A DNA stretch of 54,587 bases from a virus: UHGV virus genome UHGV-0036483; one strand, written 5' to 3'. The translations under genes were made by a program, and so were the position numbers. This document shows positions 42,206 to 42,488 of this stretch, piece by piece. Below the pieces are notes generated by a model, which had not been told where the DNA came from, did no database searches, and saw only the letters and a list, made by a program, of their open reading frames with translations. The number at the start of each line of letters is the position of its first letter. Position 1 is the first letter of the stretch.

Positions 42206-42235
42206 GAAACGAGGCTAACGCCTCGTTTCTTTTTG
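42206..42235 (+). terminator. intrinsic terminator after tail fibre gene
   Basis: GAAACGAGGC-TAAC-GCCTCGTTTC hairpin followed by TTTTTG. Confidence 0.7.
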
Positions 42236-42488
42236 TGTACCAAATTGTGACCAAATCGATAAATTAAAAACAAAAACAAAGCATAAGATGTTGAATACAA
42301 ATCAGTTTTTCGTTAGTCTACCCATTCAAAAGATAAATGGATAGTGCCATTTCTATCATTTCACATCGTGTCACATCGTTACCGCTTCACATTGATTTTA
42401 AAAGAAATATTTATTCTATCGTGTCATATCGTTTTCTATCGTGTTACTATCCATGCGTAAAATGTGTGTACCAAATAGTGACCAAATT
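42234..42488. other. putative attP region: 23-bp direct repeats flanking five 10-bp arm-type repeats
   Basis: TGTGTACCAAAT(T/A)GTGACCAAAT at 42234-42256 and 42465-42487; TCACATCGTG/TCTATCGTGT-type repeats at 42361-42444; adjacent to integrase. Confidence 0.5.

Follow-up and report, generated by a model that had tools for sequence, protein, structure and literature searches.

Positions 42234–42487 of the viral DNA analysed here (54,587 bp; hereafter the window) are very probably the phage attachment site (attP) of a mEpimmI-group coliphage and also the region at the start of int, its integrase gene, with two 23-bp direct repeats (23-mers) as the putative binding sites of the integrase and five shorter repeats as those of an excisionase (RDF). 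Sequenced lysogens demonstrate that the partner of the phage in recombination is the 3′ end of abgT in E. coli. The region is 90–95 % identical to that of the coliphages mEp010, mEp013 and mEp044 and 92 % identical to that of MagusPhagus, and the window is a temperate coliphage of the mEpimmI group with a 'type II' integrase. Phages of this group reportedly occur in human stool as commonly as lambdoid phages do, their integrases have been sorted into types Ia, Ib, II, III and IV, and the 3′ end of abgT is the integration site of those of type II (PMC11893012). The integration site is thus already published; the main text of that paper gives core motifs and integrase types and nowhere mentions arm-type, direct repeat, excisionase or Xis. 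What is newly added for the phage group is the map of arm and RDF sites, that is, the 23-mers, the blocks of ATCGT repeats and an RDF candidate, within an architecture that is itself known from other phages. The features are as follows (+ and − denote the strand).

42206–42229, +: intrinsic terminator closing the tail-fibre operon (10-bp stem, 4-nt loop, T-run)
42234–42256, +: P-arm 23-mer, TGTGTACCAAATTGTGACCAAAT, starting 94 bp left of the crossover; proposed sites P1 and P2
42257–42327, no strand: P-arm spacer, AT-rich, with phased A-tracts, AAAAACAAAAACAAA
42328–42336, no strand: crossover block, AAAAGATAA, identical in attP and the abgT attB
42351–42396, +: repeat block A of the P′ arm, with strong units TCACATCGTG (42361) and TCACATCGTT (42371) and degenerate units TCTATCAT (42352) and TCACATTGAT (42387)
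42414–42454, +: repeat block B of the P′ arm, TTCTATCGTG, TCATATCGTT and TTCTATCGTG at 10-bp spacing, with a degenerate unit CTATCCATG (42447)
42465–42487, +: P′-arm 23-mer, TGTGTACCAAATAGTGACCAAAT, starting 137 bp right of the crossover; proposed sites P′1 and P′2
42489–43688, +: int, a 399-aa tyrosine integrase (Pfam domains, catalytic motifs)
43646–43864, −: 72-aa winged-helix protein, the proposed RDF, convergent with int and overlapping its 3′ end

The location of the crossover was read from prophage junctions. In 13 complete E. coli genomes the int-side junction (attL) matches the window from 42328 rightwards, and in 12 of these the tail-fibre-side junction (attR) matches it up to 42344, which places the core between the two 23-mers. 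An earlier note on this DNA, made from its sequence, had proposed an attP here and had named lysogen junctions in advance as the test of it; those of the 13 E. coli lysogens fall inside the proposed site. The junctions were read out in strain 190, whose identity to the window in this region is 98 %. The attP sequence is ACCCATTC-AAAAGATAA-ATGGATAGTGCC, attL is CCACCA-AAAAGATAA-ATGGATAGTGCC (also written CCACCA-AAAAGATAA-ATGGATAG) and attR is CCCATTC-AAAAGATAA-GCGGATAGGGCA (also written CCCATTC-AAAAGATAA-GCGGATAG). From these attL and attR sequences, both strand exchanges took place inside AAAAGATAA (42328–42336), within the 3′ end of abgT. Joining the host flanks rebuilds a 140-bp attB that is found at 100 % identity within abgT of prophage-free strains, and in 5149 of 5426 E. 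coli genomes this attB is uninterrupted. Junctions at a core shared by attP and attB are what characterizes the attP of a heterobivalent tyrosine integrase. The suggestion that host tRNA or tmRNA 3′ ends would locate the core did not hold, the target being the protein-coding abgT instead; ARAGORN detected neither gene in the window, and there was no match in Rfam. Integration shortens AbgT from 508 to 481 residues. The TGA stop of the truncated gene is created exactly at the phage–host junction (TCA on the phage strand; window 42327–42336), and the 27 lost codons are not restored by the phage.

One type II prophage from IMG/VR (contig 3300045988_111075; loci L013 for the attR side and L032 for the attL side) sits at a secondary site. 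Fusing its two host flanks restores an AlpA-family ORF of 207 bp, which E. coli genomes contain uninterrupted at 100 % identity; 3490 of the 5426 carry this gene. GATAAG is all that this second attB has in common with attP, which reduces the stretch shared by every junction to GATAA (42332–42336). Among 8 type II attP sequences CCATTCAAAAGATAA is invariant, and the ten bases on its right vary. An extended, imperfect core spans approximately 42319–42347, with TACCCAT (42319–25) and ATGGATA (42337–43) forming an imperfect dyad. We also attempted to define an exact 7-bp overlap with symmetric core-type sites; the dyad (centre 42331) would give AAAAGAT and the secondary-site lysogen GATAAG, and because the two disagree we give no more than the 9-bp block and the 5-bp segment that all junctions share. 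Separately, the variable right edge of the core (ATGGATAGT, 42337–45) and the sequence preceding the P′ 23-mer (ACTATCCAT, 42446–54) form a perfect inverted repeat of 9 bp. Its right copy is invariant in type II phages, its left copy is perfect in this phage only, and a hand estimate puts the chance expectation at ∼0.2 per 300 bp.

The two 23-mers lie exactly where the earlier note had placed them, in direct orientation, and are identical at 22 of 23 positions. They exceed chance: a pattern search of the 54,587-bp window with ≤ 3 mismatches returned just these two matches, and none was obtained in 100 shuffles. Each is built of tandem half-sites, TGTGTACCAAAT followed by (T/A)GTGACCAAAT, which in the P arm are TGTGTACCAAAT at 42234–42245 and TGTGACCAAAT at 42246–42256 and in the P′ arm TGTGTACCAAAT followed by AGTGACCAAAT; the motif GTG(T)ACCAAAT occurs four times in the whole window, every time within the two 23-mers. 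The second copy ends at 42487, one base short of the int ATG at 42489, and the proposal that it lies just 5′ of the gene is borne out by this 1-nt gap and by the start codon itself, which opens MLTDTKLR..., a start common to all homologous integrases. The region contains, on either side of the core, repeated putative arm-type sequences that are unlike the core sequence, as an attP should. The same elements, on both arms and again in direct orientation, are present in types Ia, Ib, II and III despite their differing cores, which in the sister phages correspond to ydaM (types Ia and Ib) and mppA (type III). The copies in the other types are as follows.

mEp021 (type Ib): P arm TGTGTACCAAATAGAGACCAAAT; P′ arm TGTGTACCAAATCGTGACCAAAA
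Type Ia: P arm TGTGTACCAAATAGTGACCAAAT; P′ arm TGTGTACCAAAACGTGACCAAAA
LSU61 (type III): P arm TGTGCACCATTATGTGTACCATAT; P′ arm TGTGTACCATATTGTGCGCCAAAT

Between type II and types I the P-arm 23-mer is 91–96 % identical and the P′ 23-mer 87–91 %, compared with 57–59 % for the rest of the P′ arm, where the shuffled mean is 57–58 %. The distances are likewise kept across types, with 91–94 bp separating P site and core and 137–150 bp separating core and P′ site. Furthermore, a Sodalis prophage whose other neighbouring genes differ has TGTGTACCAAATCGTGTACCAAAT 13 nt before its int ATG. The P-arm copy lies within a block (42198–42278) that is 88 % conserved with mEp021, and because of this generally conserved setting it is the P′ copy that carries most weight for a reading as arm sites. 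As the 23-mers recur with different cores and in unrelated surroundings, and as the integrase has an Arm-DNA-bind_3 domain, they are most likely paired arm-type sites read by the conserved N-terminal domain of the integrase.

That integrase comprises Arm-DNA-bind_3 (PF13356, aa 2–87), Phage_int_M (PF22022) and catalytic Phage_integrase (PF00589) domains, with signature residues R240, H332, R335, H358 and Y367 assigned by sequence motif, so that a tyrosine integrase with an arm-binding N-terminal domain and a catalytic R-H-R-Y set is encoded directly adjacent to the site. Two solved structures, the arm-binding domains of the HPI and HAI7 integrases (3ju0 and 3jtz), match its N-terminal part (E-value about 1 × 10−7). 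Transcription of the gene runs outward from att, and the P′ arm separates the core (42328–36) from the ATG at 42489, as in the KplE1/P4-type arrangement.

Between the core and the P′ 23-mer, the earlier note had described five phased 10-bp repeats of the form TC(A/T)(C/T)ATCGT(G/T). Five units are indeed present, more than expected by chance, and the full consensus is exact in three of them (42361, 42371 and 42424), the other two being 9-mers, TCTATCGTG, at 42415 and 42435. Common to all five is ATCGT(G/T), which starts at 42365, 42375, 42418, 42428 and 42438, always on the + strand; spacings of 10, 43, 10 and 10 bp divide the units into two blocks (2 + 3), roughly on one face of the helix. 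Five same-strand ATCGT within 84 bp were seen in 0 of 2000 block shuffles, in which the maximum was 4, reached in 12. The ATCGT cores are invariant among the 8 type II attP sequences, and the units are confined to the P′ (int-proximal) arm and absent from the P arm. At the same positions other phages have repeats of another sequence, namely CCGT(T/A)C in types Ia and Ib, TGCGTAA in type III and CCGTTTCA in Citrobacter and Sodalis prophages. These inner motifs follow the RDF-like protein encoded by each phage: those of types Ia and Ib, at 92 % identity, have their motif in common, and the type II protein, 44–51 % identical to the others, is accompanied by a motif of its own, ATCGTG. The order core, two units, three units, 23-mer and ATG matches that of KplE1, and for this reason the ATCGT units are assigned to the RDF. 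With moderate confidence we regard them as excisionase sites and not integrase arm sites; of the suggestion that both sets of repeats are arm-type sites around a core, the part concerning the 23-mers most likely stands, and the 10-bp repeats are more likely RDF sites. We infer the two assignments, 23-mers to integrase and ATCGT units to RDF, from conservation, from covariation in a few lineages and from analogy.

The principal alternative accepts an attP and reverses or shares these assignments, such that the ATCGT units would be additional inverted or low-affinity arm sites and the RDF would bind elsewhere. In its favour, the inner motif varies with integrase type as well as with RDF type, and the units bear a loose likeness to the half-site when their reverse strand is read (TGTGACACGAT in type II and TTGTACGGAAT in type Ia, compared with TGTGACCAAAT and GTGTACCAAAT); in lambda, arm-type sites occur in both orientations. 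The integrases, however, behave differently along their length. The protein here is ∼50 % identical to the type Ib and III integrases overall, and its best-conserved part between types is the N-terminal domain (62–66 % over 90 aa, against 46–48 % for the remainder); it is the 23-mers that are kept along with this domain, and the inner repeats are not. Moreover, the Citrobacter and Sodalis prophages, whose RDF-like proteins are 63 % identical, share an inner motif and differ in their arm repeats, the P arm lacks inner repeats altogether, and mutagenesis of KplE1, whose layout is the same, has assigned these positions to RDF sites (PMC2951348). We consider a reversed or shared assignment unlikely, and retain that of the 23-mers to the integrase and of the ATCGT units to the RDF.

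It is very improbable that the 23-mers are not protein sites at all and instead represent a leftover duplication or hitch-hiking conserved sequence. Such a view would suit the P copy, with its generally conserved block, as well as two metagenome contigs that appear to have recombined between the copies, which suggests that the 23-mers can behave as plain homology. Against this, the P′ copy is an isolated conserved island amid diverged sequence and is kept in the Sodalis prophage next to otherwise unrelated neighbours; the composition from half-sites and the spacing to the core have been preserved; and type III alters the same half-site position on both arms, where the variant half-site is TGTGTACCATAT. 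In the two contigs (IMG/VR 3300045988_076816, locus L028, and 3300045988_064823, locus L045) the P-arm 23-mer is fused to the start of an intact int, and the 231 bp missing comprise the core and all ATCGT units; they reflect either recombination between the 23-mers or an assembly artefact. Least credible of all is that the 10-bp repeats are replication-origin iterons or operators of an unrelated regulator that lie near attP incidentally, for although phased short direct repeats in AT-rich DNA do look iteron-like, the neighbours are tail-fibre and integrase genes, helicase and replication genes are several kb away, the repeats are neither next to a cognate initiator gene nor within the replication module, every integrase type has type-specific repeats there in a fixed order between core and P′ 23-mer, and in 13 lysogens integration has split the P′ arm from the rest of the intergenic region harmlessly.

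The RDF assigned to the ATCGT units has a candidate in the 72-aa protein encoded convergently with int. A structure model, for which homologue diversity came from a profile search because the first protein search gave only close relatives, has excisionases as its best fold matches; the predicted fold is a small winged helix like that of known excisionases, and we propose that the protein is the RDF. Every member compared encodes a protein of 72–83 aa at this place just beyond int, in convergent orientation and with an overlap at the end of int. The 72-aa protein had no match in Pfam/NCBIfam, the Phage_AlpA, HTH_17 and Xis families included; its mEp021 homologue matches the generic HTH_23 only, and PHROGs gave a weak match to 'DNA binding protein'. 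Homology to TorI was considered and dropped, as BLAST gave no alignment and a sequence search of the PDB nothing relevant. The RefSeq annotation of LSU61 omits a 77-aa RDF-like gene convergent with the type III int (L058 3373–3606, +).

The closest parallel to the whole arrangement is KplE1 (CPS-53 of E. coli K-12). Between its core and PintS, attL contains five TorI sites (GTTCG/GATCG/GTCCG), two in one block and three in another, the three-site block having 10-bp spacing and abutting the −35 of PintS; arm-type IntS sites lie between the −10 and the ATG, and both IntS and TorI repress intS (Panis et al. 2010, PMC2951348). IntS has the same Pfam domains as the integrase here (Arm-DNA-bind_3, Phage_int_M and Phage_integrase), int is again read outward from att, the P′ arm separating its start from the core, and the 2 + 3 arrangement of RDF-type repeats, the 10-bp spacing of the block of three and the arm sites before the ATG recur. 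The centres of the RDF motifs are also alike, GATCG/GTTCG in KplE1, ATCGT here and CCGTTC in type I phages. Nevertheless, IntS is only 23 % identical to the integrase here, its arm motif is of the GGGTAAAA type as opposed to TGTGTACCAAAT, torI lies at the far prophage end whereas the RDF candidate here is convergent with int, and the target is the tRNA gene argW and not the coding region of abgT. Binding and autoregulation in KplE1 were tested experimentally. Within the mEpimmI group, the attP sites of mEp021 and mEp010/013/044 are the closest comparison, the latter phages with the same type II integrase and the abgT 3′ end as target (PMC11893012).

More distant systems share parts of this layout. 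P4 int is negatively regulated by Int and by the RDF Vis (cited in PMC2951348). The solved N-terminal domains of the CP4-like islands HPI and HAI7 match the integrase here at low sequence identity, and both P4 Int/Vis and these islands differ in having tRNA genes as targets. In lambda, attP carries the arm-type sites P1, P2 and P′1–3 along with sites for Xis, IHF and Fis. The common ground with lambda is a heterobivalent integrase, arm repeats on both sides, accessory repeats on one arm and a short core overlap (PMC2951348). Lambda int differs in being read towards att, from pL/pI, and in an arm-binding domain of another Pfam family; furthermore, the Xis sites of lambda lie on the P arm, and so enter attR, whereas the candidate RDF sites here lie on the int-proximal arm and enter attL.

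Taken together with these systems, the sites suggest the following mechanism. The N-terminal Arm-DNA-bind_3 domain of the integrase would bind each 23-mer as a tandem arm-type pair and the C-terminal domains the core, such that one integrase multimer would bridge the sites of the P arm, which start 94 bp left of the crossover, and those of the P′ arm, which start 137 bp to its right, over bent, AT-rich DNA to form an intasome. The 72-aa excisionase-like protein would bind the five ATCGT(G/T) units in the two blocks of the P′ arm and, once bound, bend attL in favour of excision. As the P′ 23-mer ends 1 nt before the ATG, integrase bound there probably also represses int, so that this 23-mer is a likely operator for autorepression; RDF bound upstream at block B may repress int as well, as described for KplE1 IntS/TorI. 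For the P-arm spacer we propose a role in DNA bending. It includes an IHF-like match, ATTCAACATCTTA, at 42284–42296 (− strand, one mismatch), whose TTGAAT core is invariant in type II phages. As a basis for calling IHF sites this was set aside, the one-mismatch consensus having 87 matches in the window against 71 expected, and the two P-arm matches are only suggestive.

The terminator at 42206–29 abuts the P-arm 23-mer and is conserved in all integrase types; given its position, int needs a promoter of its own inside the P′ arm. A consensus scan of 42050–42650 found no sigma-70 consensus promoter for int, and two candidates picked manually, TAAAAT (42458–63) and TTGATT (42392), were rejected, having no proper partner hexamer and not being conserved across types. 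Type II int has no Shine–Dalgarno sequence; against the 1 nt between 23-mer and ATG in type II, the gap is 12–15 nt in types Ia, Ib and III and in the Sodalis prophage and includes GGGGG or GAGGTG. The annotations of mEp010 and MagusPhagus include an int start at an upstream ATG (window 42453) and a 93-nt ORF, called a 'hypothetical protein', inside attP. Both are likely spurious calls, and annotators may drop the 93-nt ORF (mEp010, MagusPhagus) and the upstream int start (mEp010).

For the mEpimmI group, the analysis provides a map of the integration site at base level, with arm sites, crossover, candidate excisionase sites and a candidate excisionase gene. It reveals no new principle. The comparison across types does constitute a small natural set in which core specificity changes and arm recognition stays constant, which may be of some use in integrase engineering. 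A wider reading, to which we give even odds, is that the 23-mers and the arm-binding domain form a fixed docking platform on which a retargeting cassette of ∼1.9 kb is swapped between otherwise similar phages. Besides the core and the blocks of RDF sites, this cassette would include the RDF gene and, of int, the central and catalytic parts, with a left boundary just beyond the P-arm 23-mer. At least four specificities (abgT, two ydaM motifs and mppA) would be served by the platform, and the Sodalis prophage bears the same 23-mer element next to int. The abgT, ydaM and mppA targets lie ∼7 kb apart on the E. coli chromosome (PMC11893012). If this reading were true, the phages would amount to a natural series of retargeted integrases with constant arm architecture, and the direct 23-mers would be a built-in deletion hotspot able to remove attP.

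Several further observations were made in the related phages and at the edge of the region. The convergent int/RDF pair and the P′ layout appear to travel as a cassette, in that the neighbouring genes in the Citrobacter and Sodalis prophages differ (ExoVIII/RecT recombination genes). The arm repeat of the Citrobacter prophage is also different (GTGTACACATC, GATGTACATATC and GTGTACACCAC). The type III phage of LSU61 integrates in the first codons of mppA, and its P arm gives mppA a new ATG and a signal-peptide-like N-terminus (MNKIMIYILFLPLCIISLSYA; L009 1584–1660, L058 4900–5000). Lastly, the tail-fibre ORF of the window ends at 42103 (…LEEKLL*), whilst in relatives the frame runs for ∼25 more codons (…MDERIAKLEALVSKLTGSEK*; window 42054–42177); the chaperone-like C-terminal tail seems to have been affected in the window by a frameshift or an early stop.
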